The position numbers and the translations under genes were made by a program. Positions 1,410-64,000 of a DNA stretch of 64,000 nt are shown here, piece after piece; the stretch's first letter is position 1, and each line of letters starts with the position of its first letter. The notes under the pieces are model-generated. The model worked only from the letters and a program-made list of their open reading frames with translations. It was not told the origin of the DNA and searched no databases. Origin of the DNA: Elsinoe ampelina (lineage: Eukaryota); contig ML992504.1 in the NCBI GenBank assembly GCA_010093995.1, positions 496,001 through 560,000 of the forward strand, given 5' to 3'.

Positions 1410-1545
1410 TGGGGAGTTACGATATTTATGATTACCGCATGAGCGAACGAACCAAGCACGCATGATTTTTCCCTAGCATTAGCATTACTCGCAAACTAAG
1501 CCTACCCCTAGCAATGCATTTCTGTACACTTCCTTTTTCTCCCTC

Positions 1546-2337
1546 TCACCTCCCCATCCAACCTCCATCCACCGTCACCACCTCCCCACTCACATACCCA
1601 CTCGCTCCACTTGCCAACCACACCACCACGCCCGCGAAATCCTCCGGACTCCCCCACCTCCCCGCGGGTATCCTCTCGAGAATCTGCCTCGCCCTCCCCT
1701 CATCCTTGATCAACGCCTCATTCATATCCGTCCCGATATACCCGGGCGCAATCGCATTGACCCCGACCCCCTTACCCGCCCACTCATTACTCAACGCCTT
1801 TGTCAACTGCGCCACCCCGCCCTTACTCGCCGCATACGCCGGCACCGTGATACCGCCCTGAAAACTCAACAACGAACCCACGTTGATGATTTTCCCCCTG
1901 CACCCCTGAACGTCCGGTTCTTGCGCCAGCATATGCGCCCCTACATCCCGGCACAAGACGAAAGGCACAGTGAGGTTGACGTGCAGCACGGCATCCCACG
2001 CCTGGGTCGGGAACCGGTGCGCGGGGTGGCGGTCCTGGATGCCGGCGCAGTTGAGCAGGATGTGGATGCGGGGCACGAGGGCGAGGGCGGAGGCGACGAG
2101 GGAGGAGACGGCGGCGGCCGAGGTCAGGTCGCAGGTTAGCATGTGGCATTTTCGGCCGAGCGAGAGGATGGCGTCGTGTGTGCTGGTGGTGGAGGTTGGC
2201 GAGCGTTGCACGAGGATGATGTCGGCGCCGGCGCGCGCGAGGGAGAGGGCCATGGTTGCGCCGATGCCGCGCGTGCCGCCGGTGATGAGGGCGGTTTTGC
2301 CGTGGAGGCCGAAGAGGGTGTCGAGGTAGGAGGTCAT
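1546..2337 (-). CDS. Short-chain dehydrogenase/reductase, KduD / 5-keto-D-gluconate reductase-like
   Basis: [26 protein letters not shown] (TGxxxGIG), LNCAGIQ, YAASK catalytic motif, [17 protein letters not shown]-terminus; intronless; ATG at 2337. Confidence 0.9.
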
Positions 2338-2782
2338 GGTTGGGGTTGGTGGGGTAGGGGTTCTTCCGGGGGGATTGGTGAGGGGGAGAGGTGAGGCTGG
2401 GGGTCTGGGGGTTATATCGTTGGCGGGATGAGGTCGTTGATATTGATGGAGAATGGTGCCAGTTCCGCTGGTGGTGGGTGGATCAAACGCCGAAAGGTCG
2501 GCAATTGGGTTTTTTTTGGGCTGCCCCGCGTTGGTACTGCGTGCCCCGTGGTGCGTCACTGGAGAACCCGGCGGAAAAGCAGATGCCGATGATATTTTCC
2601 TGGCCGGAGCAGGGAGTCCAAGAGGGAAGAGGCCGATGTATATACCGATGGAAAAGGCACTTGTCGCGTTTCTGCTTGACTGACTCTTCCTATCCTCGAG
2701 CCACATCTAACAACTGACATATCCTACACTCACAAGCATCTCACACACACCCTCCACAACAGCCACACAAATCCCACCCCTC

Positions 2783-4116
2783 ATGTCAGAAATCCAAGTC
2801 CAAGCCTCCGTCCTGCACGGAGCAAAGGACCTTCGCCTCGTAAGTACATTCTCCTCCCCCTGCACCTCCCTTAATCTCACCTCCCAAACCCCCCCACCAC
2901 CCTCCCCTGCAACCCCCCCTCCAACCACCCTCTAACCCACCCAGGAATCCCGCCCCCTCCCCCCTCCCTCCCCCACCGAAGTCCAAATCTCAATCCACTC
3001 CACCGGCCTATGCGGCTCCGACCTACACTACTACACGCACAACCGCAACGGCGACATCCTAGTCCGCCAACCACTAACCCTCGGCCACGAATCCTCGGGC
3101 ACCATCGTGTCGCTCCCCGCCTCCCCCTCCCCATCCTCCCCCCCCTCCCTCGCCATCGGCTCCCGCGTCGCCCTCGAAGTCGGCGTCCCCTGTTCCGCGT
3201 GCGAGAACTGCGCTGCAGGGAGGTACAACATCTGCCCGGACCTGAGGTTCAGGAGCAGCGCGAAGAGTTTCCCGCATTTTCAGGGGACGCTGCAGGGGAG
3301 GATCAACCACCCTGCGGCGTTTGTTCACCCGTTGCCGGATAACATGTCCTTCGCCGAGGGGGCGTTGCTGGAGCCGTTGGGGGTGGCGCTGCATGCGTAC
3401 CGCCGGAGTGGGCTGGAGAAACTGAGTGAAGAGCAGAGGCGGAGGACGAGCGTGGTGGTGTTTGGGGCCGGGGCGGTGGGGTGTTTGTGTGCGGGCGTCG
3501 CGAGGATGAAGGGGGTGGGGAGGGTGGTGGTGGCGGATATCGATGCGGGGAGGGTGGGGTTTGCGACGGAGAAGGGGTTCGCGGATAAGGGCGTGGTGTT
3601 GCCGCTCAAGAGGGGGAAGGATGTGGAGGAGGGGTTGGAGCTGGCGAGGGAGGTGGCTGGGTTGGTCAAGGGGGAGGTGCAAGGGGATGTCAAGGTGACG
3701 TTTGAGTGTACCGGTGTGCAGGGGTGTGTGCAGGCGGGGATATATGTGAGTCTCGCTAATCTTTCGTGTCTTTTTGCACCAGCTTATGATGCTAGGCCAC
3801 ATCCCCGGGCGGTACTGTCCTCTTAGTGGGCATGGGCGTCCCCATCCAAACACTCGCCCTTTCCGCAGCCGCACTACGCGAAGTCGATCTCGTCGGCGTC
3901 TTCCGCTACGCAAACACCTACCCGGAGTCCATCGCTTTGGTCTCGAGAAAAGCTCCAGGCGACCCGGAGTTTGCTAGCTTGGTCACGCATACGGTGCGAG
4001 GATTGGACAGGGTTCAAGAGGGGTTCGAGTTGGCCGGTAAGACCAAGGATGAGAAGGGGGGTTTGGTGGTGAAGGTTGTCATTGAGACGCCCGAGGCAGA
4101 GACGAGTGGGGCGTAG
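2783..4116 (+). CDS. Zn-dependent medium-chain polyol/sugar-acid dehydrogenase (sorbitol/xylitol or L-idonate dehydrogenase-like), 3 exons
   Basis: Exon 1 MSEIQVQASVLHGAKDLRL; intron 2840-2944 (GTAAGT..CTAAC..CAG); GLCGSDLH, LGHES, CxxCxxC..C structural Zn site, FGAGAVG; second intron ~3746-3794; ends ETSGA*. Confidence 0.9.
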
Positions 4117-11345: not shown

Positions 11346-12107
11346 TTAAAGGGCAAGGGCAGCGAGAGCGGCAGCCGCGAGGAGACCGCTGGCACCAGTC
11401 TGGAGAGCAGCGGCAGCACCGGTGGCTCCGGATGTAGTGCTCTGGGCAGCAGTGGTGGCCGCGCGAGAAGTGGTGGTTGGGGCAGTGGTGGATGTGCGGA
11501 GGGAGCTGGGAACGGTGATGGAGCCAGTCGGGGTGGGCTCAGTACCGTTGGGGTATCCAATACCGCCAGTAGCAGTGCCAGTGCCGACGGGGTACTTGGG
11601 AGTCTCGACGGGGTAACCAGACTTGGTGGCAGTGGCGGCGGACGAGGAAGAAGAGTGCTCGGAGTGGTCATCAGATCCAGCAACGTACTTGTCGTTGGAG
11701 ATGCCGAAGCGGGTGGAGTACTGGTAAGCCTGGGTCTCCTGGCAGATGAGCTCGATGCCGTAGTTTTCCTCTGATGGCTCGAGAGAGGTGGAAGGAGTCC
11801 AGGAGTAGCTACCGTTGTTGTTGAGACCCTTGGCAATGTAGCTATATGGGGCCATGGCGCTGGCGGATGGACCCTTCAGAAGGACGAGGTCGACCTTCTT
11901 GCCGCAACCCTCCTCGGTAGGCTTCCAGGTGACGGAGAAGCCAGAGCCAGCAGGGACGACCGAGTTGAGGCCCGGCTGGAAGACAGCGCCGGCGGTTGGG
12001 TTAGAGCCACCAGGGACGGTGATCTGCTCCTTGTCGTGAGCAGCGACGAGAGGGGCGAAGACGGCGAGGCCGGCGGTGAAAAGGGCGAAAGTGCTGAAGT
12101 CTGACAT
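11346..12107 (-). CDS. Secreted GPI-anchored Ser/Thr-rich cell-wall protein (Kre9/Knh1-like N-terminal Ig domain)
   Basis: Signal peptide MSDFSTFALFTAGLAVFAPLVAA; VTWKP..VDLVLLKGPS..NNGSYSW..YQYSTRFGI domain; Ser/Thr stalk; hydrophobic C-terminus GLLAAAALAALAL. Confidence 0.85.
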   Translation of the reverse strand: MSDFSTFALFTAGLAVFAPLVAAHDKEQITVPGGSNPTAGAVFQPGLNSVVPAGSGFSVTWKPTEEGCGKKVDLVLLKGPSASAMAPYSYIAKGLNNNGSYSWTPSTSLEPSEENYGIELICQETQAYQYSTRFGISNDKYVAGSDDHSEHSSSSSAATATKSGYPVETPKYPVGTGTATGGIGYPNGTEPTPTGSITVPSSLRTSTTAPTTTSRAATTAAQSTTSGATGAAAALQTGASGLLAAAALAALAL

Positions 12108-13752
12108 TTTGATGGTTGTGGGATGTATGAGGTTTGTGGAAAGGTGTGTATTATCGAAGGTATATTGTTGAACGTGGTAAATTAAGTGAGCGACGTGGAA
12201 TGTTGGACGTTTATGAGCGAATGGCTGGAAGAAATGCTTCCTGAAATAACGTGAGACGCAGGGCGCAGTTTTCGAAGGTGAGTAAAGGTAAAGGAGAGAA
12301 AGGTTGCAGCTGAGAGGCGTCCAGTTGAGATATAGCGGACAAGGCGAGCCACGCTTCTCAGCTGGAGGGCTTTTTTGCCGGCGGCATGGTTCCTTGAGAA
12401 TGAGCCTTGAGGGCTTTGGGTGCCCTTCATCCCCCTGTGTCAAACAATAGTCGACTCGAGTTGGCCTACGTCTGGGCCGCTTGTCAAGAACAGCTTAGCG
12501 TCAGGAACGAAAGGAACAGCAACCAGTCAGTGCGCGTCTGACGACCAATGAGAGACGGAAGACGGCCGGACCGGTGATGAGCAAGACGAGTCTATTTTGC
12601 GCCTCTTCGACCCTTGACCATGACAGGAAATGAGAAATGGTAATTTACGAGCCCAGCTGGACTCGTGATGGAGAGAGGGCTCCCGAGGTAGCATTGCATA
12701 AACTTCTTACTGTGCCGGTACATCGTATGCTCATGCCAGATATTGGAAATAATGTAGGTTGTGTGTTTATACAGCCCTTGAGGAATGCCGCAGGGCAGGA
12801 TTAAGATTATACGCCGTTGTCAGACAGTGCTCGCGCAAACACCACGCGTCTGACGTTTTGATGGTAAACCCCCAGGCGATGGCAAGTTTATCGATAGCAA
12901 GCGTCCTTTACGAAGTTGCGATATGCATGGTCAGCCCTATGTGTGCCACAGAAGATGCACCATGGGGATGATGCGGGTCCAGCTCCTTCTCGATTGGATC
13001 AGTTGGACTGATCAAGGCACTCTGTTGTTGTTGAGTGCTTTGCAATTTGCTTACCGGAAGGCAGCACCAAACGCCACTGGCGCCTTGAAAAGAAGGCACA
13101 GTCGACGCCTTGGGATGCCTTGCGGTAGCGCGTGCTGCGTGCTGACAGCCTCGTAAACTCCCAAGCGGTGAGGATCGCTTCTATTATTGCTTCTTTCCGC
13201 TCTGATAGTCTTGAGCAGGAAGAGCCTGACGTGCATATCCAATCTGCTGGAGAGACTATGGATGCCGGATGAAGCTTGACCTGAAGATCCGGGCCGTGTG
13301 TGTCTCGTCGCTTTTGTCGTGAGCTGGAGCCCGCGTGCCCGGGCCAATTCATCTCCGCCTGCCCCACAGTCAATATCGACCTCATCTACCGACAGAGTGA
13401 CTTGTCTTTCATCGATCGCTGCACCCGTCACAATTCTCATATGCACTTCAATGGCTGTCCAATGCCATGTCTATTTCCAGGTAGGTTCTGACAGTCGTAC
13501 AAGAACAAACAAGCATCTCACACGACCTTCGGAGAATCCATCGGACTTTCTCGTCGGTGACGTATCTTCTAACCATCATCTGCCATTTTTGTCCGACAAA
13601 AGAACGTCAACATCTCGGACCTCCACAATGGCACAACTATGGCATTTCCGCATCGCTGTAGATTTACCACGGCCAAGTATACAGGTCAAGTTTGCTCCGA
13701 ACCTCCTGTCTCTCCTTTACCACATCACCCCGCTGAGCAATACACTCACACA

Positions 13753-15333: not shown

Positions 15334-16438
15334 GCAAGGATGGAGGGAGGGACAGGTTCGCTGATGTATTTGTTTGATTTGTATCACTCCAATCGAGATA
15401 TGAGGGTCTTCTTTCGGTTCGCCGCTTCGTGCGTCTTCCTCTTCTTTGCCGCTGTTCGAGTGACCAAAGATAGCTCCTCAAGCACCGTCTACCCCTCACC
15501 TTCATACACCCAGGCATGACCGCGGTGAACCAATGCCTTCAAAAGATGATACGATACACAAGTACTACCCCTCCTAGCCCCTTGCCAACCCGAGCCCTAC
15601 CACCTCCTCTCGCCCCTTCTCCCCCCTCACGATTCATGCCAAGTCTCACATGCAATCACATGCCTCCCGCCTTTTCCCCCAAAAAACAGCAAAAAAGACA
15701 AAGCTGTCCTCGACCTCGAGCGATTACTCACTCTCAGCTTCGAACGCGGGTGCGGCGTGGGCTTAATGGGACCGATCCTGGGCTGTCTAGCAGCGTGTTC
15801 AACATCCGGCCACTGTGACTCTGGCTTTGTCTTTGGATCCGAGGCGGGTAAGAAAATATATGTACCCTTGTTGACTTGGAAGGGGATCGGTGGGAGCACG
15901 TGCTTTAAGATTATGTGACGGTCATTGAAAGGCTGGGTGTGGGAGGTGGGCAAAGGTTGCTACCTGATGTGCTTGTCGTTGGTGGGTTCGCATCGGCCTT
16001 TGACGAGGTGCTTGCGCTTCTTGATCACTCAGGCTCCAAGGTGCCTCGTCGAAGAGATAAGCTGATTTGTGCTGAGATACAGCTTCTGCCGCGGTCGTGT
16101 GCCACACAGTTCTTCGAGCTGACTATCCAGGACTTTGCCGTCCGTTCCTCGCACTTGAGGTCCTATCTCCGAGAAGCTACAGTAAGAGTGCCCTTGAGTT
16201 ATCTCCTTAAGGCAATCGTCAGGAGCAGGGCTCTCTTCCAGCTTACTTGGTGCCGTGCTGGCAGTTGCCCTCTTATGAGCACTTGCTAATGCTGTTCCTC
16301 CACTGGGAGCTGATTGAATTTGGGTCAGATTCATTAATTGCTTTGATGCTGCACCTTCTAGGGCTTCATAATGCAATGTCGGTCGTCAGTATCCAGTAGC
16401 CCAGAACTCTCTGTCGTCTCCTTTCGGCTTGATCGATC

Positions 16439-19479: not shown

Positions 19480-19727
19480 GACTTTCCAGGCTGCCAGAGG
19501 CAAGGAGTTGATGGAGAAACAAACCAATACACCGAAGCGCAGGGGAGGTCGGAGGTGACGCGCCGCGCTTCGCGACTCGCGCGTAAATTAAATAAAAGTG
19601 GGTCATTTCGAATAACTATACTGCTCTGTACTGTGTTTTATATCCCATGCTCATCTGTCCATAGCATTCATCATCCGCTCCTCGTCCCTTCATCATATCC
19701 CAGCAAAGCCACCCCCATCCCGCCACT

Positions 19728-19803: not shown

Positions 19804-19817
19804 AGCCCAGGTACCAC

Positions 19818-48933: not shown

Positions 48934-49384
48934 CGGCTGGCGGTGTTAGGGAGATGGTTGAGAAGATAGCATGCCGGGATTGAGGACTCGAGAAATGCGA
49001 ATAATGGCGGGGCGTGAGGGTGAGGTTGTGGTGCAAGGCTGGAGGTGGTGATGACGGAGGTGGATGGGATGGTGAAGCTCGGAGGTGGAAAGTTGGCCGC
49101 ATTTTTGGCTTCATGCAGGGTTCACTTTGGCACAGCAGATCTGGATGCAGAAACAGATCGCGTGTCATTGGCTACATGTTTCGACCTCTCGCATGTTGAA
49201 TTGATTTTGTTTGATGTACTGATACAGATGTCCGAATTATATCGACTGGATATACAGCGCTTTCAGTGTCCCTTACTATGCGCGGGGCCTCAGCCCGAGA
49301 GTGAAGATGCAAAAACCCCCTAACCACCACCAAACATATCCCCCAACACACTCATCCTTGTATCCCTTCTCTCCCCCCTGATTA

Positions 49385-51342: not shown

Positions 51343-51800
51343 CTTGCAGGAAGTTGTGAGACTCTATAAGCTGGTGTGAGACAACTCCGAGAGATATGAA
51401 GCAAGTCACACAATGCAGGAGTGTCGTGATGCCGAATTGAGAGCACTCTTCAGCTGCTGTGAATGATCTGAAGCAAAAGCTCCGACTTCAAAAACTTTCT
51501 ACATCATTGTCCATCTCGCCAAGGCCGCTCATCTCGTCGCGCGAGTCATGGTCAGCCACAACTGCAACAGCACACCCACATTTCCTTCATTCCGCCTTCC
51601 TCACCGCTGGCCTTACCAAGTACTTCCAGGCAACGATATGTGATCCACCGAGGTATCAATACAGGCTGGGTAGTCCCCATCTTGCTTCCCTTCACATACA
51701 GTCTTCCCCTTCTCATCTTACCATCCTCCTCTTCTCATCTCCTACCACGGCCTCACATTCCCTATCACGCACCTCACACCTCCATCCACCCTGCCTGAAC

Positions 51801-52646
51801 ATGGCCACCAACCCCACCAACCCCCTCCCCCTCTTCCACCCCATCTCCCCTCAAATCCTCTACCACTCCCCCCCTCCCACCTCACACTCCTCCCCGCCCC
51901 CTCCCGACCACCCCGCCCTCATCCTCCTCTGCACCTGGGCCTCCGCCTCCCGCCGCAACATCGCCAAATACACCGCCACCTACACCACCCTCTACCCCTC
52001 CACCCCGATCCTCATCCTAGAGTCCACAGTCACAGACATGGTCTTCGCCACCGACGCCTCCCAAGCCCGCGCTTTTGCCCCGGCGCGCGACGTCATTCTC
52101 TCTACCCTCGCGACGGCAGGATCGGGGAGCGTGTTGCTCCATGTCTTCTCCAATGGGGGCGCGCAGACGGCGGGACGGTTGATGGTTAGCTTGCCGGTGC
52201 GGGAGAGGGAGAGGTTACTGAAGGGGGTGGTGTTGGATTCTTGCCCTGGTGGGACTGGGATGGGGAGGAGCGCGGATGCGATGAGGGCTTCGTTGCCGAG
52301 GACTTGGGTTTGGGGGGTGGTCGGGTGGGTGGTGGTGTGGGTGGTGCTGCTTGGGGTGATGGTGGTGGAGGTGGTGTTTGGGGTGGAGAACGTGGTTAGT
52401 GTGGCGCGGAGGAGGTTGGTGGATCCAGAGGTGGTGGGGAGGGAGGTGCCGAGGGTGTACCTATATGGGAAAAAGGATAAGATGGTGTGGTGGGAGGATG
52501 TAGCGGCGCATGTGAGGGAGGCAAGGGAGGGCTGTGAGAGGGTCGAGGAGGTGAGGTTTGAGGACGGCGATCATTGTGCGTATATTGTGAAGAACGACAG
52601 GGAATATTGGGAAGCTATCACGAACTTGGTGGGTGGTAAGAGGTAG
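51801..52646 (+). CDS. DUF829/TMEM53-like (PaxU-like) alpha/beta-hydrolase-fold protein
   Basis: LILLCTW..NIAKY..Y, LLHVFSNGG, VLDSCPG, PRVYLYGKKDKMV..W.DV..H; ATG 51801. Confidence 0.8.
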   Translation: MATNPTNPLPLFHPISPQILYHSPPPTSHSSPPPPDHPALILLCTWASASRRNIAKYTATYTTLYPSTPILILESTVTDMVFATDASQARAFAPARDVILSTLATAGSGSVLLHVFSNGGAQTAGRLMVSLPVRERERLLKGVVLDSCPGGTGMGRSADAMRASLPRTWVWGVVGWVVVWVVLLGVMVVEVVFGVENVVSVARRRLVDPEVVGREVPRVYLYGKKDKMVWWEDVAAHVREAREGCERVEEVRFEDGDHCAYIVKNDREYWEAITNLVGGKR

Positions 52647-52823
52647 TTGAAGTGATTAGTCTTGATTCATTCTGCTACTATCTTACACCCATTAAGTCAT
52701 GCCAAAGCAAGACCCTCCACATCTCGACAAGCGCTTGCTTAAACTTCGTTTCTCATACTGATACATGTAATCCTCCTAAAAGCTATGCAAGCTCGGGTAT
52801 CAACCTTTTTTTCTTTCCGTAAT

Positions 52824-53687
52824 TTAAAAGTTCCTGGCGGGAGCGGCGTTGGTGTTGTTATAACCGTACGGGTTAACGCCAGTGCCCTCGGGCTGGGTGT
52901 AGTAGCGACCGTGAGTGGAGTGTCCGACAGGCTCAGCGTCCTTCACCAAGCCAGTCTGATGGGGAGCGGCGACAGTAGAGCCGGTGTATGCAGTGTCATA
53001 GGAAGGACGAGTGTCGACACCAGCCATCTCGGCATCGCGGTGGCCGTGGTGACCGTGGGCACCAGCGCCGGCGGCAACAGCAGCCTTCTTGCGCTGCCAA
53101 GGGAAGCGACGGCGGCCACTGCCGGAGGTGTAGTTGTTGGATGGGCTGGGTCCGAAGCGCTTCTCCTTCTTGTGGTTCCTGACAAGGAAGACCTGGATAA
53201 CAGCAAGGATGAGGAAGAGGAAGGCGCCAACGATGGAGACAGCAAACGAAGCCTTGTTCAGTCTGCAGGCGGTGCCGAGAGAGCTGGAATAGGTGATCTG
53301 ATCATCAAAGCTGCCGCCGCTGTTGACGTCTCCAGTGCCGATGGGAGTGGTGACTGTGCCGGTGCAGGAACCAGTAGCATCCCTGGTGAGGACTGCGATC
53401 GCGACGAAAGCTCCCGCGAATGCAACATTAAGCACAATCGCGAGGAAGGCGAAGAAGCTGATACCACCGAGGCAGCAGGTGAGGACAATGCCAAAAATGG
53501 TGTAGACAACAGCAATGCCTGAGATGCCTTCTACAGCCAACCAGTTGCGAGCGAGAGGGATGTTACGATCCGACAAGACGGCAAGGAAGTAGGAGTAGAC
53601 GCCGATGATGATGGCTGAGCAGCCAAAAGCGAGGGCATAGAGGAATGTCTGAAAGAGGCGTAGGAAGCCTCCACCGAGAAGACCCAT
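52824..53687 (-). CDS. MARVEL-domain four-TM membrane protein
   Basis: Four hydrophobic helices, CRLNKASFAVSI, cytosolic tail KRFGPSPSNNYTSG; ATG 53687. Confidence 0.8.
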   Translation of the reverse strand: MGLLGGGFLRLFQTFLYALAFGCSAIIIGVYSYFLAVLSDRNIPLARNWLAVEGISGIAVVYTIFGIVLTCCLGGISFFAFLAIVLNVAFAGAFVAIAVLTRDATGSCTGTVTTPIGTGDVNSGGSFDDQITYSSSLGTACRLNKASFAVSIVGAFLFLILAVIQVFLVRNHKKEKRFGPSPSNNYTSGSGRRRFPWQRKKAAVAAGAGAHGHHGHRDAEMAGVDTRPSYDTAYTGSTVAAPHQTGLVKDAEPVGHSTHGRYYTQPEGTGVNPYGYNNTNAAPARNF

Positions 53688-54544
53688 GGCGGCGATGTGA
53701 TGACCGTGGAATGTAGGTTGGATGTGATGCGGCGTGATGCGATGAAATGAGGGAGGAGCAAGTCTGTTGGTGGAGGGATGAGGTGAGGGTGAAGAAAGTC
53801 CCACTGATGAAGTACGGCTGTGACGAGGGATGTGGAATGTACCTCGAGGCGGTATAAGAATGCATCAGGATCGGAGCAAGGCTCACCTCATGTGAGGCCG
53901 GCAGGTTCAAAAATCCCACGTCATTGCTGCGCCGCATCTATGAATTGCGCGCCCCACACGTCATGCCTGACGGGCGATCTGGTTGGACAGAAAGGGTCCA
54001 GTTCACCCTCCTTTGAAATGTTTGCATGCGACAAGCCACACTCCGGCTTCTTGGTTGCGGCACGGTCAAACTCTATTGGTCTCGAGCCTTTCGCAGCCTC
54101 TATTTTCTATGAAACGCATCGCATGAAGGACGCGGCTTTGGTCTATTCTTACACGTGTCAGCTTGCGCAGGCTTCACTCTTCTCCACTATGCTGATCAGA
54201 ACTCTTCAACGGCACCATCAGACCGACGCACGGGAGAGACAGCCGCTCAAACAGTCGGAAAGACACCGCCGGGAAGTGTGTGATCGACGACTTCGTCACA
54301 GGCACCAGGAAACTTGATTCTGATCACAACTCCGATTGAATTGTCCTCTGGGGTCTAGACACTCTCATCGGCCTTGCTTTTGAACGCATTTTCTCAAACT
54401 GGACAAGCAAATAGCAAGCTTTTAGTGTCGTCCTGGAAAACCTTACAAGTTCACCGAGCAGTCTGGATGAACATGATGAACACTTCGGTACCAAGGATAT
54501 CGTCGAGGGTTTCAATCCCTCCATTAGGGTAACAGTATTGGGCT

Positions 54545-55826
54545 TCATAGACCCTTACCGGCTTCCACCAAAATCTTGACCTGGTTGTCCTTATCTTTGA
54601 TCAAGGCAGTGAAACCTTCTTCAACAACCTCGTTGAGCTTGATTTTCTTGGTGATCATTCCTTCTGGCTTCATCCGACCGGAACTGATGGCGTCCAGCAC
54701 TGCTTGAAAGTCTCCTGCCTGGTAAGTTGCTACTCCGTGGTAGCTTCTCTCTTTGAAGCAAAACTTGTTTGGCACAATTGTGCATGGCTTCTCCCAAATG
54801 GCGATATTGACCACAGCTCCTCTGGCTCTTACGGCATCCACAGCGGTGTCCAATCCAGCTTGAACTCCAGCGCAGTCATACACCACATGGACTCCCTGAT
54901 CGTCACATAGCTCTTTACATCGCTTCACCACATCCTCTTTCGTCGGATCAATAATCACATCTGCACCAAACTGCCGAGCGAAGTCTTTCCGCTTGGCTGA
55001 CAGTTCAGAAACAATGATTTGACCGTCGCCTCGAGCTCGAAGTGCTTGAATGACAGAGAGGCCAATCGGACCACCTCCCAAGACGAGCGCGCTCATGCCT
55101 GGCTTCCAAGGTGATATATTGACGGCGTGCCACCCAACCGCGAGAGGCTCAACCATGGCTGTACTCATTAGCGTGCTCCTGGACATTGGAGCGACCTGCT
55201 TACCTGCGACCTCAAGACTGACGTTGTCAGGAACCGAATATACCGAAGCCTCAGGCACGACACAATGCTCTGACAGTCCACCGCCCCAGCCTATTGAAGT
55301 TCAGCCCTGGGATCGCCTAGACCAACGGGACTATGCTCACCACTGAGCCCGACGAAGCCATTGCTATAGCAGCAATTGATCAGGCCCTCTTTGCAAGCTC
55401 CACAGGTTCCGTCGTAGATGATGGGCTGTACGCATACTCTGTCCCCGACCTTGAATTTTGTCACACCCTCTCCGACCTCTTCAACGATACCACTGAACTC
55501 ATGACCAAATGTCAAGGGGACCTGCTCGCCAGTAATAGGGTGCGGGGTTGTGGGGCAGAGCGAGGGGCCACCCATATATTCGTGGAGATCTATGCATCTT
55601 GTCAGCGTGCTGGTCGCGATCAGACTGGTGGCAAGACCGCATACCACTTCCGCAAATACCACACCAACTTGGGGCGACCTATGCATATTCATCAATCTCG
55701 TCTGCCGCCCAAGATCCACGCCTGTGGACCTACCTTGACTTGACCTTTTCCGCACTCGGGGATGGGAATCTGTTCCAAGCGCAAGTCTTCCTTGCCGTGG
55801 AATCGCAATGCCGTCATGGTCGCCAT
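54545..55826 (-). CDS. Zn-dependent MDR, (R,R)-butanediol dehydrogenase-like, ~5 exons
   Basis: Exon 1 MATMTALRFHGKEDLRLE (55826-55734); exon 2 WCGICGS (55678-55645); then DLHEY, FGHEFSG, VEPLAVGWHAV, LGGGPIG, QVKILV. Confidence 0.88.
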
Positions 55827-56784
55827 TTTGAGGCGGTTGTGAAGAAAAGCAGTTTGGTATGGGAGAAGACAATAAAAGTGTCTGGACTCTCAAGCGCAGG
55901 GTTTAGATACTAATATCTCTCGGCGCAGACAGCCACACACGCACTTTCTTACTTTCGCATGATCTACCAGACACATGGTCATGTCTTTATGCACTTCTCC
56001 GCACTGAGGATCACCTGCTGGATTCCAAGGGCAAACGCAGCCGTCCCATGGATGCACTTTAACGGCATGCCCCGAATTGGATTTCCGAAAGCTTTCCCCT
56101 CGGAGGGCAGAGGTGGGGGTTTGGAGGGGCAGCCAACATGGTCCTGGGCGTGTCGCGTCGCAATTCAAGCTCGCCGCAATGCATCCCCGAGACAGGGACG
56201 AAACCAGGCCTCGGCCACGACGACTTCTGTACCTTTGTGATGACGAGGGAATACACTCCGTGATCTTGATTGACTTTGAACAAGTCACACAAAGTCCGCC
56301 GATGACACTGTGGTATCATCACTTTTCAATTATCGCTCGGGCCGAGCAACGTCATAGTGAGAGCTCCTCAGGCCGTCAAGAAGACATGGAATTACTCGCC
56401 CAGAGACGCCGGCATAATTTTTGGCGACATTGCGGCTCTTTTTGACATGGAGATCTCATGCTTTCAGATCCGAAAAGATCAGATTCAGTGATGGATATTG
56501 CTCCGAAAGGTAGGGGGTCTTTCAATGGCCAAAAACCATGAGAGATCGTTGCGAACTGAGGGGTCCTCTTGAAGCCAAAACAGTGACCTCACAGCTGGAA
56601 TCGGAAGTTAGTTTGTCTACTCGCCCTAGGCTGAATATTTTTCAAACACCCCCACCTATCCATCCCACCTGAGCCGCTCTTGATAAACAATTGACCCCCA
56701 ATCTACGGGTTCTGTTCTCTCACTTTGCATTCCTGCTCATCAACAACCTCCACTGTAATTCGTCGTTTCACACAATCGCCCAAC

Positions 56785-58144
56785 ATGCCTTACCCAGAGA
56801 CCGCAACTGGATTCATGATCCATGACCAGAAGGATTACCTCAACTTCAAGAAGGAAGAGGTCAGTCTCACCGCTCAACTCAGCTATTCGTGTGTAGGCCA
56901 GTAAATTGACCTCCTACCAGTTCAAGCTCAAACCTTTCGAGGACCGCGACATTGACGTTGCCATTGAGTGCTGCGGTGTCTGCGCTTCCGACTTGCACAC
57001 CATCAACGGTGGCTGGGGTGACTGCCCTCTGCCAATCTGCGTAGGCCACGAAGTCATTGGCCGCGCCATCAAGGTCGGAAAGGAGGTCAAGACTATCAAG
57101 TAAGACTCGGAGATCACGGGTAATCCAGAACATGTCACTAACAGCTTCCAGGGTCGGAGACCGGTATGCACTCAATGGGATGAGAATATGGAACGAAAGA
57201 CTGACATACTCAACAGTGTCGGTGTCGGCGCTCAGATCAAGGCCGATTTGACCTGCGACAACTGCAAGGCTGACCAGGAGAACTACTGCCCAAACTCGGT
57301 CGACACATTCGGTGCTCCTTACGAGGATGGAACTATCTCTCAGGGTGGCTACTCGAGTCACATTCGTGCACACGAGTACTTTACTTTCAAGATCCCCGAC
57401 AACATTCCTTCCGAGATCGCAGCACCGATGGTCAGTAACGTCAGAATTGCTCGAACTTGAACCTCTGACTGACCCTGAATAGCTGTGCGCCGGTGTGACT
57501 GTCTACAGCCCTCTCGTCCGTCTCGGAGCAGGCCCTGGCAAGAAGATCGGCATTGTCGGAATGTAAGTGTCTTTCCGAGCACCCCCCCCCCGAAGGACCA
57601 CTACTAATACAACCCCAGCGGCGGTCTGGGTCACTTCGCCCTCCTGTGGGCCAAGGCACTCGGCGCCGAAGTCTACGCCATCTCTCACTCGCCTTCCAAG
57701 AAGGAAGACGCCCTCAAGATGGGCGCCAAGGAGTTCATCGTGACCAACGAAAAGGGCTGGAACGAGCCGTACAAGTTCAAGTTCGACTTCATCATCAACA
57801 CTGCCGACGCCATGCACAAGTTCGACATGTCCGCCTACTTCTCCACCCTCAAGGTCATGGGCCGCTTCCACACCGTCGGTTTCGGTGACCACCCCATCCC
57901 ATCCCTCATGGCTCAGGATTTTGCCCCCAACGGCTGCTACCTCGGTGCAAGCCACATCGGTAACCGCCCCGAGATGTTGAGCATGTTGGATTTGGCGAGC
58001 AAGCAGAACATCAAGAGTTGGGTGCAGACAATTCCTATCAGTGAGGCGGGTTGCAAGGAGGCTATGGAGAAGTTGACCAAGAATGATGTGCGGTACCGCG
58101 TGACTCTCACCAACTACGATGACGTCTTCGGCAAGAGGACATAG
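56785..58144 (+). CDS. NADP-dependent Zn alcohol dehydrogenase (Adh6/cinnamyl-alcohol DH-like), 6 exons
   Basis: MPYPETATGF; CGVCASDLH, VGHEV, GGYSSHIR, APMLCAGVTVYSPL, GGLGH, VRYRVTL; includes a 12-nt exon at 57152-57163. Confidence 0.9.
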
Positions 58145-58546
58145 AGTGCTTGTCCGAGGTTTCGAAGTGCAGATGGAGTATTGAGAGTTTGGCGTGGCGT
58201 AGGTCGTCATAGGAAGGGGTGTGTTGCGTTGAGCAAAGACAACAACATATTGTTAGCTTCGGATGTGGAGACTTTGAAAATACAACAAGAACATGAACAA
58301 GAACAACTTCTGCTTGTGCCCTCTATCTTGTGATTGTTTCGCCTTCTCATCCACGCCTGATATCGGACTACGACTCCTCGTGCTTTTCGCGTGCCACTTT
58401 CTACACCTTGGGCTAGTCACTCTACTTGGAGCGCTGCATCTGGCGTTAGATTCAGTCGAAGCATCCACTTTTGCTCCTCTTTTCACTGACAGTCGACCTG
58501 GCATTTCCGTGACGGTACATGATCAATCCTCCCTCCCCATCCCATC

Positions 58547-59329
58547 TCAACCCCCTCCTCTCCCCCTCCTCACCACCCCCTCCCCAAAGCCCCTCACCAC
58601 CCCATCCAAAACCCTTCTCACCTCCCTACACCCATCCACCCCAACCGCCACCATCCCCTCCAACCTCCCCCCCTGCACCCTCGTCTCCCCCAACACAGCC
58701 ACAACCCTCGCCTCCCCCGTCCCCTCCCCCCCACCCACCGTCGCCACCGTAACAAACGGCAACTCCACCTCCTCCGCCGCATTCAAATCCAACAACGGGC
58801 CCGCCCCCTCATCATTCGCCGCATAACTCGCCGCACTCCCCGCCGTGCACGCCACCACGTAATCCGGCAAGGGCACGCCGGCATCAATCAACGCCAACGT
58901 CGTCGCATTGATCAACGCCGCCACCAACCCGCCGTCGGACGAAAGCACGTGCAACGTCACCTGCACCGACGAATGGGGGTAGAGATGCAGGAAGGCGACC
59001 TCCCCGAACGTTTCCTCGACGAGGTGCTGGAGCTCGGCCGCGCGCTTGTCCGTGCGGGAGGTGCGTTTGCGGTCCGTGGAGGCGAAGGGCGCGATCGAGA
59101 TGCTGGCGCTCAGCGTGGCGCGCGAGGATTGGTCGCTGCGGCCGAGGCGTTTGGTCTCGAGTGGGCCGGAGACGGTGCAGAGGATTTCGGTGTTGCCTTG
59201 GCACAGGTGCGAGGAGCCCGAGGAGGAGCGTTGGGTGGAGATTTGGGCTGTGAGGTGCCGGAGTTCGTTCCAGCGGCGGCCGTCGAGGCGGAGGTGGGAG
59301 AGGGGGTAGAGGGTGGTGTCGAGGGGCAT
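58547..59329 (-). CDS. RRP41: Exosome complex RNase PH-like subunit Rrp41/Ski6
   Basis: LRLDGRRWNELR, GSS..QGNT..CTVSGP, VLSSDGG..AALINATTLALIDAGVP, PLLDLNAAEE. Confidence 0.92.
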   Translation of the reverse strand: MPLDTTLYPLSHLRLDGRRWNELRHLTAQISTQRSSSGSSHLCQGNTEILCTVSGPLETKRLGRSDQSSRATLSASISIAPFASTDRKRTSRTDKRAAELQHLVEETFGEVAFLHLYPHSSVQVTLHVLSSDGGLVAALINATTLALIDAGVPLPDYVVACTAGSAASYAANDEGAGPLLDLNAAEEVELPFVTVATVGGGEGTGEARVVAVLGETRVQGGRLEGMVAVGVDGCREVRRVLDGVVRGFGEGVVRRGRGGG

Positions 59330-59769
59330 GGTGGGGGTTGTGGGGGGGTGGTGATGGGGAGGTCGTGTGGGTGAGGGCTTGGGCGTTATTGCATGCGTGT
59401 GGGCTAGGTCTGGATCTCGGTCTGATGGAGAGAGGGTTGGGAGGACTTGGATGTCGTTGATGCCGATTGTAGTGCCGAAAATGGGATGTGCTATACTAAG
59501 GAATATGCAGGTGAAATTTATGGTCGATCGTTCGGATAGCCTGTTTGGGACTAGCTCAGATGTTTCACATGATGTGATTGGTCAGATTGTGCGGCATGCT
59601 GCCTGCGGCCTGTTGATGCTGCTTCGTCCTTTCACGAACAACATGCTTGAAGCTTGATAGTGATTCGTGGTTTTCAAGCAGTCGGACGAATGGAACGATT
59701 TACAGAACCGGTGATCCTGCTTCTCGACGGCACTTGTATGCCGAGAAAACCAGCGAGCTCTGTCTCATC

Positions 59770-62727
59770 ATGGCGCCACCAAGGTCATCTCGGAAGTCAT
59801 CGCCGCAAGATCTCACGCCGTCACGACCAGGACATATAGACCTGAGCCAGTACTCACCATCTCCTTTGGATCCTGAAACAGATTCAAGGTCATCGTCACC
59901 AATCGAGGTATCAGCCCCACGAGTCACGAAGCGTGAACACTGGTCTTCGGATGAAGATGACGAGACTGCTTTCAACAAGTTCAAGAAGCAGAAGAGCACC
60001 GCACGGAAGGCCGAGGCAGCTGCTGGACGTAAAGCAAAAGCTGCGATCAAAGAATCAAAGGGTTCGATCGTAGGGCGGAAGCAGCAGGATCTGGTCCCGC
60101 AAAAGAAACGTCGTCGCTACGATGATCCTTCCAGCGAGGACTCTGCAGACGATGCCATCGAGAAAGCCCAGCCGGAGTTTCTGAAGCAGAGGAGAAATCA
60201 ATTCGAAAGAGCGCACCAGGAGTACGGTCAGGAAGGCCTCAAGCTGCCACCTCTCTTACCTACCGCCTTCGACGAAGATGGGAAGCGACCGCGGGACAGA
60301 GCGATCAAGCCTGTCTTACCGGCTCTTACACCTCCAGCGCCATATAAGGAGGTGACTTTGAGGTATAGTGCCGGTATAGTGCCAGCACCGATCGCTCAAT
60401 GGCTTCGAGAGTATCAGGTCCAAGGTGCAGAGTTCTTGCACGAGCTGTTTGTGTTTCAGAAAGGTGGCATCCTCGGCGATGACATGGGTCTGGGAAAGAC
60501 GATCCAAGTCATCGCCTTTCTAACAGCTGCGTTCGGGAAACATGGTGATGAAAGGGACGACAAGCGCATGCGCAATGCAAGGCGACTGGGTGACGAGATC
60601 TGGTACCCCAAGATCCTTATCATCTGTCCTGGTAGTCTGATTGCCAACTGGGGCAACGAACTCAAGCGTTGGGGTTGGTGGCAAGTCGGTGTAGCACATG
60701 GTCCTGCACGTTCGTCCACAATAGAAGCTGCAAGAAAAGGCCGATTGGAGATTGTCATTACTACTTACACGACCTACCGCGAACATATGGAGGAGATGAA
60801 CATGGTAGACTGGGATGCATGCATCGCCGATGAGTGCCATCAGATCAAGGAACGTAAGGCTGAGATTACCAAAGCCATGGATAAGATCAATGCTCTTTGC
60901 AGAATTGGTCTGACTGGCACGGCGATCCAGAACAAGTATGAAGAGTTATGGACACTTCTCAACTGGACGAATCCTGGTAGATTCGGACCACTGGCTGTAT
61001 GGAAAGCTAGCATCGCTAATCCTCTCAAAGTGGGTCAGTCCCACGATGCAACAGTCGCTCAGCTTGCTAACGCTCGCAAGACTGCCAAAAAGCTGGTTCA
61101 AAATCTGTTACCTCAGTTCTTCCTTCGTCGCATGAAGACTCTCATTGCTGAACAGCTTCCGAAGAAGACCGACAAGGTTGTCTTTTGCCCCCTGACCGAG
61201 GCGCAGGCAGGGGCATATCAGGAACTTGTAGACAGCGAGGTCATTGAGACCATCCGTCGTGCTTCGGAGATGTGTGATTGCGCCTCTCAAAAGAAGCGTG
61301 GATGGTGCTGCTACAAGTATGTCCCTGACGGCACCAAATGGCAACACATGGTCTTTCCGGCACTGGCTACGCTGCAGAAGCTTTCGAACCACTTGGCCAT
61401 GCTGATACCGACTGGAAGTGACCCCAAGGAGAAGCAGGAGAAGGACGTCGGCTGGCTTCAGATTGCCATACCAGATACATGGCGTGACTTGTGGGAGACC
61501 CGCGACAGCATCATGAACTTTGCCAACCAAGAATTCTGTGGCAAATGGATAGTACTCAAAAAGTTACTACGATTCTGGCATCAAGACGCCGAAGCAGGCA
61601 ACAAAGTCCTCGTTTTCAGCCATTCCGTCCGACTCCTCAGAATGCTTCACATGCTCTTCCAATCCACTACCAGCTACAATGTCTCCTACCTCGACGGCGC
61701 CATGCCCTACGCCGACCGCCAAACAGCCGTCGACGAATTCAATTCCCAACCAGGACAATTCGTCTTCCTCATCTCCACCAAAGCCGGCGGGGTCGGCCTC
61801 AACATCACCTCGGCCAACAAAGTCATCGTCTTCGACCCCAACTGGAACCCCAGCTACGACCTGCAAGCGCAAGACCGCGCCTACCGCATCGGCCAAACCC
61901 GCGACGTCGAAGTCTACCGCCTCGTCTCGGCCGGCACGGTCGAAGAAATCGTCTACGCCCGCCAGGTCTACAAGCAACAACAAGCCAACATCGCGTACAG
62001 CGCCAGCGAAGAGCGGCGTTACTTCAAAGGCGTGCAAGGCACCGAAGACCGCGGGGAGATCTTCGGGCTGAAGAACATGTTCAGCTACAAAGACGGCGTG
62101 GTCCTCCAGGAAATCGTCAACAAGACCAACGTCGCGGAGAGCAAAGCCAGCGCCGCGAAAGTCGTTGATCTCGGCACCAGCCAGGCCGATGACCCTGCCC
62201 CTGACGAAGACGATTGGTTCCGCGACGTAGCCGACAGGCAGGACGCGGCCATCAGCCAGGTAGCAGCCATGGTCGTCGGCGACTCCAAGACCAAGCGGGA
62301 CCGCGGGACCAAGAAGACGGACGCCGTGGCTGCTATCCTCGCGGGTGCAGGCGTGGAGTACACCCATGAGAACAGCGAAGTGATCGGCACGTCGAAGATT
62401 GAGGGGGAGTTGTCGCGGGCTGCGGAAGCGGCGGGCGGGTTGGGGGATGAGCATGTGTTTGTGCGGAGCCAGGAGGGGGGAAAGGGCCGGGGTGGAGGGG
62501 AGGACGAGGATGAGGGGGAGGGGGAGGGCGAGCTGGATAGGATCCGGTATCGCTTTCGCCCGCCGGAGGAGGTGAGGAGGAGGCAGTTTGTGAGTATGGC
62601 CAAGGCGGCGGGGTATGAGGATGCTACAAGGTTCGCGTTGGTGGTGGAGGGATGGACGCAGGCGGGGAGGAGGGAGTTTTTGGATAGGTGGTATAAGGGG
62701 AGGAGGAGGGCGTTGAGAGGTCGGTGA
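59770..62727 (+). CDS. SNF2-family helicase, ERCC6L2/Rad26-like
   Basis: GGILGDDMGLGKT, DECH, LTGTAIQN, FLISTKAGGVGLN, QAQDRAYRIGQ, plus the VIGSSK-type motif YTHENSEVIGTSK; ATG 59770; intronless. Confidence 0.9.
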   Translation: MAPPRSSRKSSPQDLTPSRPGHIDLSQYSPSPLDPETDSRSSSPIEVSAPRVTKREHWSSDEDDETAFNKFKKQKSTARKAEAAAGRKAKAAIKESKGSIVGRKQQDLVPQKKRRRYDDPSSEDSADDAIEKAQPEFLKQRRNQFERAHQEYGQEGLKLPPLLPTAFDEDGKRPRDRAIKPVLPALTPPAPYKEVTLRYSAGIVPAPIAQWLREYQVQGAEFLHELFVFQKGGILGDDMGLGKTIQVIAFLTAAFGKHGDERDDKRMRNARRLGDEIWYPKILIICPGSLIANWGNELKRWGWWQVGVAHGPARSSTIEAARKGRLEIVITTYTTYREHMEEMNMVDWDACIADECHQIKERKAEITKAMDKINALCRIGLTGTAIQNKYEELWTLLNWTNPGRFGPLAVWKASIANPLKVGQSHDATVAQLANARKTAKKLVQNLLPQFFLRRMKTLIAEQLPKKTDKVVFCPLTEAQAGAYQELVDSEVIETIRRASEMCDCASQKKRGWCCYKYVPDGTKWQHMVFPALATLQKLSNHLAMLIPTGSDPKEKQEKDVGWLQIAIPDTWRDLWETRDSIMNFANQEFCGKWIVLKKLLRFWHQDAEAGNKVLVFSHSVRLLRMLHMLFQSTTSYNVSYLDGAMPYADRQTAVDEFNSQPGQFVFLISTKAGGVGLNITSANKVIVFDPNWNPSYDLQAQDRAYRIGQTRDVEVYRLVSAGTVEEIVYARQVYKQQQANIAYSASEERRYFKGVQGTEDRGEIFGLKNMFSYKDGVVLQEIVNKTNVAESKASAAKVVDLGTSQADDPAPDEDDWFRDVADRQDAAISQVAAMVVGDSKTKRDRGTKKTDAVAAILAGAGVEYTHENSEVIGTSKIEGELSRAAEAAGGLGDEHVFVRSQEGGKGRGGGEDEDEGEGEGELDRIRYRFRPPEEVRRRQFVSMAKAAGYEDATRFALVVEGWTQAGRREFLDRWYKGRRRALRGR

Positions 62728-62869
62728 AGGGGGATTCTGCTTTCGGCGTATTGGACTGTCAGGGCTTTGGCATGATACCCCGCTGTATTGACACGGCAAA
62801 TCACATCATGTACACTTGGGCAACGGCGTCCGGGTATCTATTCTTTTCATGCGATCCTCTCCAACGGAT

Positions 62870-64000
62870 CTAGTCTTTGTCTAGCCTCACAGCCGCATTC
62901 CCCTCTATGAACCCCAAATCGACCTTGTGCCCCAACAAATCCCTAATATTGCTCAACTTGTATTTAATCATCGTCGGCCTCTCCAACGACAACCCAAACC
63001 CGTACACCCTCAAATCCTCGGGCAAGCCCATCGCCTCCAACATCTCCGGCCTGAACATCCCACTGTTCCCTATCTCAACCCACTTCCCCAGTCCCTGATG
63101 GTACCCGAAAACCTCCATACTCGGCTCAGTATAGGGGTTGTAAGCCGGCTTGAAGCGCAGATTCGTGATGCCCAGCTTCCCGAAAAATCCCTCCAGGAAA
63201 GCCATCAACCCCCCGAGAGTGAGATTGTAATCCGCGATCACGCCTTCGATCTGGTGGAACTCGGCGAGATGCGTCGCGTCGACGGATTCGTTGCGGAAGA
63301 CGCGGTCGATGCTGAAGTACCGGCAGGGACGCGGGTCGCGGGCGAGGCGGTGCAGGCAGTAGGTCGACACGGCGGTGGTGTGGGTGCGGAGGACCAGGCG
63401 GGCGGCTTCGGCCGGGTTCCACGGGTAGCGGTAGCCGATGGAGCCGTATTTGCCGGTTTCGTGGACGGCGCGGACGTTGGCGAAGTAGGTCTCGTAGGGG
63501 GTGGGGTGCGGGGTGTCCGTGGGGGCGAGGGACTCCATGGCGTCGAGGGCGGCGTCGGCTTCGGGGTCGGCACGCGGGGGGTCGGCGAGGGGTGGGTCCG
63601 AGACGTAGAAGGTGTCTTGCATGTCGCGGGCGGGGTGTTGTTGGGGGACGAAGAGGGCGTCGAAGTTCCAGAAGCCGGAATCGACGAACCTGGNNNNNNN
63701 NNNNNNNNNNNNNNNNNNNNNNNNNNNNNNNNNNNNNNNNNNNNNNNNNNNNNGGGCATTTCTATGAAGCCTTGGTGGAAGAATATCTTACGGAACTCTT
63801 CCCGGACCTTGTTCAAGGGATGCAGAGCGCCCGCTTGTTGAGGTGCGCCGAGTGATTTGAAGTTGTATGGTTTCCAGTTTGCGGTTTGCCATGAGCCATT
63901 CTCGAGCATGTCTGGTGTGAGATCTGTGACCTCGACCTGTATCTCCTTGGCATACTTTGGGCCCTTCTTGACAATGTAATGGATGACCTTGGCTGTCGTG
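62870..64000 (-). CDS. FRS2: Cytosolic phenylalanyl-tRNA synthetase alpha subunit (5' part outside window; spans assembly gap)
   Basis: [72 protein letters not shown]. Confidence 0.95.
63694..63753. other. Assembly gap (60 N), probably covering an intron donor of the PheRS gene
   Basis: Run of N. On the minus strand it is followed by ..CCAG|GTTCGTCGAT (acceptor, then FVDSGFW), and the frame changes across it. Confidence 0.9.

Follow-up and report, generated by a model that had tools for sequence, protein, structure and literature searches.

Why would the coding strand of a gene give up nearly all of its G and then, within about a kilobase, nearly all of its C? This question is raised by a 64,000-nucleotide stretch of DNA from Elsinoe ampelina (NCBI GenBank assembly GCA_010093995.1, contig ML992504.1, positions 496,001 to 560,000 of the forward strand, read 5' to 3'), which we call the window and number from its first letter. 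About half of the genes in the window bear, at a gene end, a block of approximately 1 kb in which the coding strand is nearly free of G and then nearly free of C. An earlier note on this DNA had listed 12 such domains by eye, as places where the plus strand passes from C-rich through a CpG-rich centre to G-rich, and had proposed that each centre is the fixed site of a bidirectional, strand-asymmetric process. The domains withstand measurement, but their anchoring points are found at the ends of genes.

The fungal DNA of the window is compact, its introns are short and of the GT..AG type, and its overall content of guanine plus cytosine (GC) is 0.547. Pfam assigns ordinary genes to both strands, Mus7/MMS22 also among them. 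The 12 domains and one weaker addition are given below, where UTR stands for untranslated region, CDS for coding sequence, GC3 for the GC content at third codon positions, and skew for GC skew, (G - C)/(G + C).

D1, 1519-2449, minus strand: whole short-chain dehydrogenase (SDR) gene (CDS 1549-2337; Pfam adh_short 3e-52) plus approximately 100 bp of 5' UTR; switch ~1949; coding-strand third-position skew -0.75, -0.50, +0.41, +0.62; GC3 0.73-0.93; left edge 27 bp from the stop codon.
D2, 2690-3750, plus strand: sorbitol-dehydrogenase-like gene (ATG 2783; ADH_N 7e-20), covering 5' UTR, exon 1, intron 1 (2840-2944) and exon 2; switch ~3196; third-position skew -0.83 to +0.77; right end at the next intron.
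D3, 14100-15450, plus strand: 3' 1.2 kb of a FAD monooxygenase gene (stop 15333; FAD_binding_3); switch ~14935; third-position skew -0.87 to -0.63, then +0.90, +0.93; right edge 18 bp from the stop codon.
D4, 19676-20762, minus strand: 3' end (C-terminal SDR domain) of ATRR, an A-T-R-SDR reductase gene resembling nonribosomal peptide synthetases (NRPS-like; Pfam architecture; stop 19818); switch ~20136; coding third-position skew -0.55, -0.88, -0.35, 0.00, +0.74; GC3 up to 0.87.
D5, 28476-29815, minus strand: 3' 1.1 kb and 3' flank of a histone deacetylase (HDAC) gene (stop 28706; Hist_deacetyl 7e-80); switch ~28999; third-position skew -0.71, -0.92, -0.88, -0.50, +0.02, +0.92.
D6, 40205-40783, plus strand: 5' UTR and exon 1 of a gene with its ATG at 40274, ending at intron 1 (40728-40776); switch ~40423; exon 1 third-position skew -0.79, -0.62, 0.0, +0.60, +0.62, +0.89.
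D7, 45552-46650, minus strand: 3' 1.1 kb of a GH47 mannosidase-like gene (stop 45526); switch ~45982; third-position skew -0.87, -0.79, -0.81, +0.12, +0.80, +0.83; edge 26 bp from the stop codon.
D8, 47865-49090, minus strand: 5' UTR (C 0.48, G 0.10) and first 1.1 kb of the same GH47 gene (ATG 48933); switch ~48601; third-position skew -0.80, -0.77, +0.36, +0.71, +0.81, +0.58, then the balanced gene middle.
D9, 51690-52660, plus strand: whole DUF829 gene (CDS 51801-52646; DUF829 1e-45) and its 5' UTR; switch ~52109; third-position skew -0.89, -0.50, +0.83, +0.91, +0.41; right edge 37 bp from the stop codon.
D10, 58520-59487, minus strand: whole exosome Rrp41/Ski6 gene (CDS 58550-59329; RNase_PH 1e-32) and its 5' UTR; switch ~58967; third-position skew -0.73, -0.38, +0.56, +1.00; edge 20 bp from the stop codon.
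D11, 61597-62727, plus strand: 3' 1.1 kb of an ERCC6L2-like SNF2 helicase gene (stop 62727); switch ~62201; third-position skew -0.86, -0.73, -0.36, -0.38, +0.38, +0.71; right edge 6 bp from the stop codon.
D12, 62880-63690, minus strand: 3' part of a mitochondrial-type Phe-tRNA synthetase gene (stop 62870; tRNA-synt_2d 8e-75), domain and gene both cut by an assembly gap at 63694-63753 (60 N); switch ~63214; all-site skew -0.20, then +0.38; GC up to 0.73; left edge 34 bp from the stop codon.
Weaker additional domain, 33056-33778, plus strand: 5' end of an AAA-ATPase gene; C-rich at 33056-33414, G-rich at 33439-33778; GC normal at 0.56.

In 300-bp windows, GC skew reaches extremes of -0.75 and -0.76 (45601-45900 and 58501-58800) and of +0.81 and +0.72 (15001-15300 and 52201-52500), and the domains have a GC content of 0.60-0.73, compared with approximately 0.53 elsewhere. 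The top C-to-G switch statistic is 349, against 162 +/- 21 (maximum 224) in 200 shuffles of 100-bp blocks. A fixed rule applied to all sites (300 bp on either side, absolute skew of at least 0.35) calls nine C-to-G switches. Eight of these fall in listed domains (1540-2440, 2740-3750, 14100-15350, 45560-46600, 47930-49090, 51700-52600, 58520-59440, and 62880-63660 by their first approximate spans), and the ninth, at ~33430, is the weaker addition. The remaining four (19700-20700, 28600-29700, 40220-40770, and 61600-62730) are not called by this rule but stand out at third codon positions, with skew moving from between -0.79 and -0.92 to between +0.71 and +0.92. The passage from C-rich to G-rich on the plus strand is therefore confirmed for all 12, by the fixed rule for eight and by third positions for four. 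The mean skew profile is at its maximum 200-400 bp away from the switch and is zero past +/-600 bp. Within domains, GC3 is 0.8-0.93 (background 0.45-0.6), and third-position GC skew runs from approximately -0.9 to approximately +0.9. Third-position AT skew flips as well, from values of up to +1.0 in the C-rich halves (C-halves) to -1.0 in the G-rich halves (G-halves).

On the coding strand, the order is C and then G in 12 of 12 domains. It had been said that the domains override gene orientation, which is true; however, a C-then-G pattern is symmetric under reverse complementation, so independence from orientation comes automatically, and the coding strand is always C-rich at its 5' side and G-rich at its 3' side. 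There is no strong isolated domain of the reverse order, as the earlier note had observed, yet the same fixed rule finds six G-to-C junctions, every one of them in an intergenic gap between units. The junction at ~4300 is the meeting of two moderately skewed convergent 3' ends and lies outside any full domain.

The skew is not an assembly artefact, because the same sequence is carried by independent public runs, including one whose contigs behave as RNA and skip GT..AG introns, and by a collinear 73-kb contig from a related species. Stretches not covered by the RNA contigs, such as 62472-62884, were left out of interpretation. Repeat-induced point mutation and foreign DNA fare no better. GC rises in the domains (0.60-0.73) rather than falling, the affected genes are ordinary housekeeping genes with close orthologues, and a self-BLAST of the window at E <= 1e-5 returned no non-self match, that is, no internal repeat. 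We give this whole group of explanations virtually no chance of being correct.

The polarity from C-rich to G-rich is that of bacterial replication origins, and a bidirectional origin at each switch was among the processes first proposed. This polarity is the point in favor of the idea. Against it, the 64 kb hold 12-13 switches, the skew fades out by ~600 bp instead of being kept over a replicon, and the switches are located inside coding sequences while the domain edges fall on stop codons and 5' UTRs. Nor do the switch points share a motif among the eight CG-rich hexamers that were counted; the best of these, GCCGGC, has 6 of its 25 sites within 150 bp of a centre. Given this density, short reach, and gene anchoring, the origin reading fails, and we consider it very improbable.

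Domain placement instead follows gene ends. In seven of the 12 domains, one of the 22 stop codons lies no more than 50 bp from an edge, whereas random placement yields 0.83 and none of 5000 trials reached seven. With a limit of 150 bp, the count is nine (P = 0.0002). Domains D2, D6, and D8 start in 5' UTRs, and D2 and D6 end at an intron. The outer edges are sharp, and neighbouring genes are unaffected. Three genes of ~0.8 kb (SDR, DUF829, and Rrp41) are covered whole. In four long genes (ATRR, HDAC, ERCC6L2, and the FAD monooxygenase gene), the last 1.1-1.3 kb hold a full C-then-G unit, with no 5' signal in the first three, and the GH47 gene has a complete unit at each end and a balanced middle.

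Genes also tend to be either affected or not. Skew in the last 300 nt is at least +0.39 at 10 of the 22 gene 3' ends, and eight of these 10 are C-rich (-0.24 or lower) 600-900 nt upstream. At the remaining 12 it ranges from -0.37 to +0.19, and the distribution in the 64-kb window is bimodal. The earlier note had held that a full explanation by position within transcripts would count against its proposal. Position does explain the pattern largely, since placement follows the gene and the C-rich 5' side and G-rich 3' side of the coding strand are anchored at a gene end. Because of this anchoring and the constant coding-strand polarity, a fixed centre is probably not the source of the process.

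Which sites carry the skew was judged by sorting codons into C-half (1441), G-half (993), and background (4836) classes by local third-position composition. Fourfold degenerate sites hold C at a frequency of 0.79 in C-halves and G at 0.77 in G-halves, compared with approximately 0.25 for each base in the background, although these fourfold figures are partly circular because third-position composition set the classes (unclassified windows are given by domain in the list above). Twofold pyrimidine sites are C at 0.96 in C-halves and T at 0.80 in G-halves (background T 0.45), and twofold purine sites are A at 0.78 in C-halves and G at 0.95 in G-halves (background A 0.40). The typical codon likewise changes between C-halves and G-halves from CTC to TTG for Leu, from CGC to AGG for Arg, and from TCC to AGT for Ser. 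Since twofold sites go to A in C-halves or to T in G-halves, what drives the shift is that G or C is shunned, not that GC is gained. First G and then C is excluded, even where GC content falls as a result.

Sites outside the reading frame follow the same rule. Six pieces of 5' UTR, when pooled, have C at 0.50 and G at 0.09, and the intron of D2 has C at 0.57 and G at 0.05, which bears out the earlier description of domains that run into introns and UTRs. Even amino acid usage is altered: C-halves are enriched in Pro, Thr, Ser, and His, and G-halves in Gly, Val, Glu, Arg, and Trp, such that Gly makes up 5.8% versus 14.3%, and His 4.2% versus 0.7%, of the two kinds of half. Because silent sites show the strongest skew and 5' UTRs and the intron show it to the same degree, the skew does not result from selection on proteins or on translation. 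Thus, the skew persists at synonymous and intronic sites, where its disappearance would have spoken against the original proposal, and the part of that proposal in which a strand-asymmetric process rewrote silent, intronic, and UTR sites is upheld by the fourfold, UTR, and intron compositions.

Selection could still act on the nucleic acid itself, through avoidance of C at transcript 3' ends, through a C-rich stretch that neutralizes a G-rich 3' stretch by pairing with it, or through a code of G-quadruplexes (G4) or other structures such as the one suggested earlier. The first of these is the adaptive idea, involving CTP, that was put forward by McLean & Tirosh (PMC3315797; here and below, papers with a PMC number are cited for excerpts of their text), and domain positions are conserved across the genus. 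Moreover, each whole-gene domain is predicted to fold as RNA into a single long hairpin (263/318, 275/326, and 203/296 pairs between halves; -394 to -464 kcal/mol). However, shuffled sequences with their local composition preserved reach equal energies (z = -0.18, -1.42, and -0.01), and selection for hairpins was rejected on this ground. G4 enrichment was rejected too, because G-runs and G4 motifs are rarer than composition gives: composition-matched shuffles contain 525 +/- 13 runs of at least three G (446 observed), 260 +/- 10 runs of at least four (204 observed), and 157 +/- 24 G4 motif starts (108 observed), for z values of -6.2, -5.6, and -2.0. The CpG-rich centres that had been noted do hold both C and G, but the ratio of observed to expected CpG is 1.06 there, compared with 0.97-1.12 in the halves and 0.88 in the background, and their richness is purely compositional. 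Finally, conserved housekeeping proteins are pushed to odd amino acids, as in Rrp41 with its Gly-to-Pro changes and a tail rich in Gly, Val, and Arg, which resembles a cost rather than a benefit. We find selection of this kind rather improbable.

Comparison with relatives shows how widely the domains are shared. The GH47 protein is 99% identical to the Elsinoe ampelina GH47 and Rrp41 is 96% identical to that of Elsinoe batatas, and identities of the encoded proteins are 82-83% with E. fawcettii, 70-76% with E. australis, 73-75% with Sphaceloma murrayae, and 62-66% with Myriangium duriaei, which places the window in an Elsinoe species (Dothideomycetes, Myriangiales). Amino acid usage was scored on a log-odds scale derived from this window, whose own values are therefore circular. 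On this scale, the C-part of the GH47 3' domain scores -0.55 to -0.67 in Elsinoe and Sphaceloma, -0.51 in Myriangium, and -0.19 to -0.43 in other Dothideomycetes, and the G-part scores +0.46 to +0.59, +0.22, and -0.01 to +0.46, respectively. The GH47 middle lies between -0.17 and -0.33 in 14 of 14 sequences. The amino-acid-level skew of D7 is common to three other Elsinoe/Sphaceloma species, and usage in Rrp41 is graded as in GH47. Conservation of domain position in orthologues, which had been suggested as a check, is therefore found: proteins place the same domains across Elsinoe, and more weakly outside it.

When changes were polarized with outgroup proteins and the codons of the window (small samples, nonsynonymous changes only), 89 in C-halves gave net values of +22.8 for C and -19.2 for G, 67 in G-halves gave +24.7 for G and -15.7 for C, and 65 in a control stretch gave +19.5 for A. 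In either half, transversions such as G>C, A>C, C>G, and T>G stand out. In four runs compared with 51401-63690, nearly all of 40 places listed out of ~1180 that differ lie outside the domains, and the totals per run do not inform on position. Environmental Rrp41 sequences extend the comparison to 74 of 80 loci (six partial matches dropped, duplicates kept), for which the skew of the 3' side minus that of the 5' side averages 0.14 +/- 0.19, compared with 1.14 in the window. The nearest environmental relatives, three metagenome contigs (L001-L003) with 60-61% Rrp41 identity, have intermediate differences of 0.64-0.75. Judged from these sequences, the trait may reach beyond the genus Elsinoe.

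A rival explanation is that each switch point is a long-lived intragenic site of recombination or double-strand breakage. Strand-directed repair of heteroduplexes would correct G.T and G.G mismatches, in which the invading strand bears G or T, more efficiently than A.C and C.C ones, in which it bears C or A. On both sides, the invading strand would consequently drift to C, and fill-in synthesis, if error-prone, would produce that polarity too. The observed polarity, C to the left and G to the right, agrees with this argument from mismatch efficiency, itself a derived one, and a reach of ~0.5 kb per side together with raised GC3 suits conversion tracts. Protein evolution is fast in the domains, with 70-82% identity for Rrp41 within the genus and 61-77% for D7, compared with 85-88% in the GH47 middle. 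Most of D9 falls below 80% identity in a related species, while its flanking DNA is at approximately 90-91%. One run from a related species (X15) aligns to the DUF829 gene (51535-52660) in four short pieces with length changes between them (e.g., 374 versus 279 letters), and by these alignments the gene evolves much faster than its neighbours. Intragenic hotspots are also reported in Zymoseptoria, another dothideomycete (Stukenbrock & Dutheil 2017, PMC5844332). Hotspots of GC-biased gene conversion, an account of which was reportedly given by Lesecque in 2013, resemble the domains in having GC3 peaks a kilobase wide and rapidly evolving proteins.

Several of the measurements already given fit poorly with such hotspots. 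The domains break off abruptly at stop codons and 5' UTRs and leave neighbouring genes untouched, and skew peaks 200-400 bp off the switch instead of adjoining it. GC-biased conversion is strand-symmetric and favors G and C alike, but twofold sites in the domains go to A or T as the disfavored base is removed. Damage to resected 3' tails, which is the more usual expectation, gives the opposite polarity, and GC-biased conversion in Zymoseptoria is weak or absent in the material cited (PMC5844332). We therefore see hotspots at the switch points as unlikely. A related model, with breaks at the domain edges and damage to resected tails, gives the right sign by gene end but needs a mirror-image skew across the intergenic gap. 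This mirror is missing at most edges (mean skew is approximately zero past +/-600 bp), and the inner halves of long genes are left unexplained, so the model was set aside.

The closest known phenomenon is the skew of genes in unicellular fungi, with C in excess at the 5' side and G at the 3' side. As described by McLean & Tirosh in 2011 (PMC3315797), it reaches UTRs, fourfold sites, and amino acid usage, it is a weak average trend that is significant in 33% of Candida albicans genes, its AT skew is flat, and its cause was left open. The domains agree with it in the order of the coding strand (12 of 12) and in the kinds of site affected. They differ in being near saturation (+/-0.8-0.9 at silent sites), on or off among genes, accompanied by a flip of AT skew, and hosted by a filamentous dothideomycete. 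Furthermore, the C and G biases lie at opposite gene ends, with intermediate values between them, in that earlier description, whereas here the full unit is present within ~1 kb of one end. The domains are an extreme, on-or-off version of the weak fungal skew, amplified in the Elsinoe lineage, and they are set apart by their amplitude, bimodality, AT-skew flip, and the union of both halves at one gene end. A literature search found no description of such domains in filamentous fungi, with most subscription journals outside its reach, and the word "skew" does not occur in the E. fawcettii genome paper.

What is observed directly is that the pattern exists, that it is anchored at gene ends, that silent, intron, and UTR sites all carry it, and that orthologues share it. 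Our preferred reading, to which we tentatively assign a probability of approximately 0.45, is that a domain is the footprint of strand-asymmetric substitution tied to the end of a transcription unit and not to a point in mid-domain. From the 5' UTR or the stop codon, and over ~0.5-1.3 kb, the coding strand would swap G for C and then C for G. Genes of ~1 kb would be covered whole, and long genes would receive a complete C-then-G unit at one or both ends. In yeast, exposed strands lose C, and lesion bypass tends to write G on the damaged strand. We infer that the G-rich strand of each half is the one repeatedly exposed as single-stranded DNA, where bases, C above all, would be lost and bypass would tend to place G. 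In the 3' half this would be the non-template strand, exposed through hybrids with sense RNA, and in the 5' half it would be the template strand, exposed through hybrids with antisense RNA.

A number of points weigh against substitution of this kind at transcription-unit ends. The antisense RNAs and the RNA-DNA hybrids are assumptions of the model. Where a gene is long, its two halves lie together at one end beside a balanced middle, and one sense transcript alone would not lead to this arrangement. AT skew at third positions swings from approximately +1 to -1, as opposed to the flat AT skew of the published fungal pattern. GC content climbs to 0.9 at fourfold sites but only to ~0.6 in UTRs and the intron, a gap that may point to a second force in coding sequence, and the circularity of the fourfold figures belongs with these reservations. 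In addition, RNA contig depth does not visibly separate genes with domains from those without, although such depth cannot rank genes.

It is also possible, if on balance doubtful, that the domains are self-reinforcing pairs of R-loops, in which sense RNA would form its hybrid over the G-half and antisense RNA over the C-half next to it. Damage towards G on the displaced strand would make its own RNA more G-rich and the hybrid more stable, and each R-loop would launch transcription into its partner. In this arrangement, only the C-then-G order would allow mutual feeding. R-loops were reportedly identified as antisense promoters by Tan-Wong in 2019. With pairs of this kind, one could understand why the polarity is fixed, why the halves adjoin, why a domain measures ~1 kb and is seeded at a gene end, why genes are either affected or not, and why amplification proceeded slowly in a single fungal lineage. 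If they were to hold elsewhere too, they would provide a mechanism for the long-unexplained skew of fungal genes.

Other systems resemble the domains in part. Vertebrate mitochondrial gradients of single-strand deamination and bacterial replication skew, both set by replication, produce G+T-rich versus A+C-rich strands at silent sites on the scale of a replicon. The shift of twofold sites to A in C-halves and to T in G-halves is similar, but the domains are confined to 1 kb per gene end, G or C rises far above T or A, and G/C transversions are prominent. GC skew at mammalian CpG-island promoters is said to have been linked to R-loops by Ginno et al. in 2012 and 2013. Such promoters show bidirectional strand asymmetry (Polak & Arndt 2009, PMC2817419), and, as in the domains, their kilobase-scale passage from C-rich to G-rich has a centre rich in GC and CpG. 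Unlike the domains, they have their switch on a divergent promoter and a coding strand that is G-rich downstream from the start. In the window, switches are within coding sequence, 5' ends are C-rich, and promoters lie at G-to-C junctions, of which the divergent promoter at 2337-2783 is an example.

An excess of C over G is likewise known at plant and fungal start sites (Fujimori 2005, PMC555766), and in Leptosphaeria maculans, a dothideomycete, it peaks at -50 from the ATG (Bourras 2012, PMC3411245). The C-rich, G-poor 5' UTRs of the window (C 0.50, G 0.09) resemble this. However, the known peak spans ~100-200 bp in the excerpts cited, whereas in a domain the C-rich part reaches ~500 bp into the coding sequence before a G-rich half takes over.

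The weak fungal skew has been without an accepted cause since 2011, and here it appears near saturation in sharp 1-kb units. Because only about half of the genes in one neighbourhood are affected, genes with and without it can be compared directly within one genome. The process distorts conserved housekeeping proteins and inflates divergence between species, and models of codon usage or selection that assume one composition per gene break down where it has acted. It can also mislead gene callers through spurious reading frames on both strands. Skewed domains lack stop codons in several frames, and long spurious open reading frames (up to 412 amino acids) are consequently found on both strands over real genes, among them 45499-46131 (plus), 61570-62805 (minus), and 58523-59371 (plus).

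Several features of the window stand apart from the main pattern. The NRPS-like enzyme of D4 (19821-23822, minus strand, 1334 amino acids) has AMP-binding, carrier, and NAD_binding_4 reductase domains and a second short-chain-dehydrogenase domain, and its skew is present in the last domain only. This architecture matches that of fungal carboxylate reductases of the glycine-betaine type. A Kre9/KNH-like gene (11430-12370, minus strand) has a plus-strand skew of approximately +0.4 over most of its length, so its coding strand is C-rich throughout; the skew has one sign and no G-rich partner half. Three blocks (33300-34200, 35700-36300, and 27300-28500), located partly in the AAA-ATPase gene, show an AT skew of +0.35 to +0.42 with little GC skew, an asymmetry unlike that of the domains. 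Lastly, three runs skip 115 bases at 57100-57216 and have 10 other letters there (ends TA..CA). This is probably an intron of the alcohol-dehydrogenase gene with shifted alignment ends, and the other introns of that gene and of its neighbour are confirmed by GT..AG skips.

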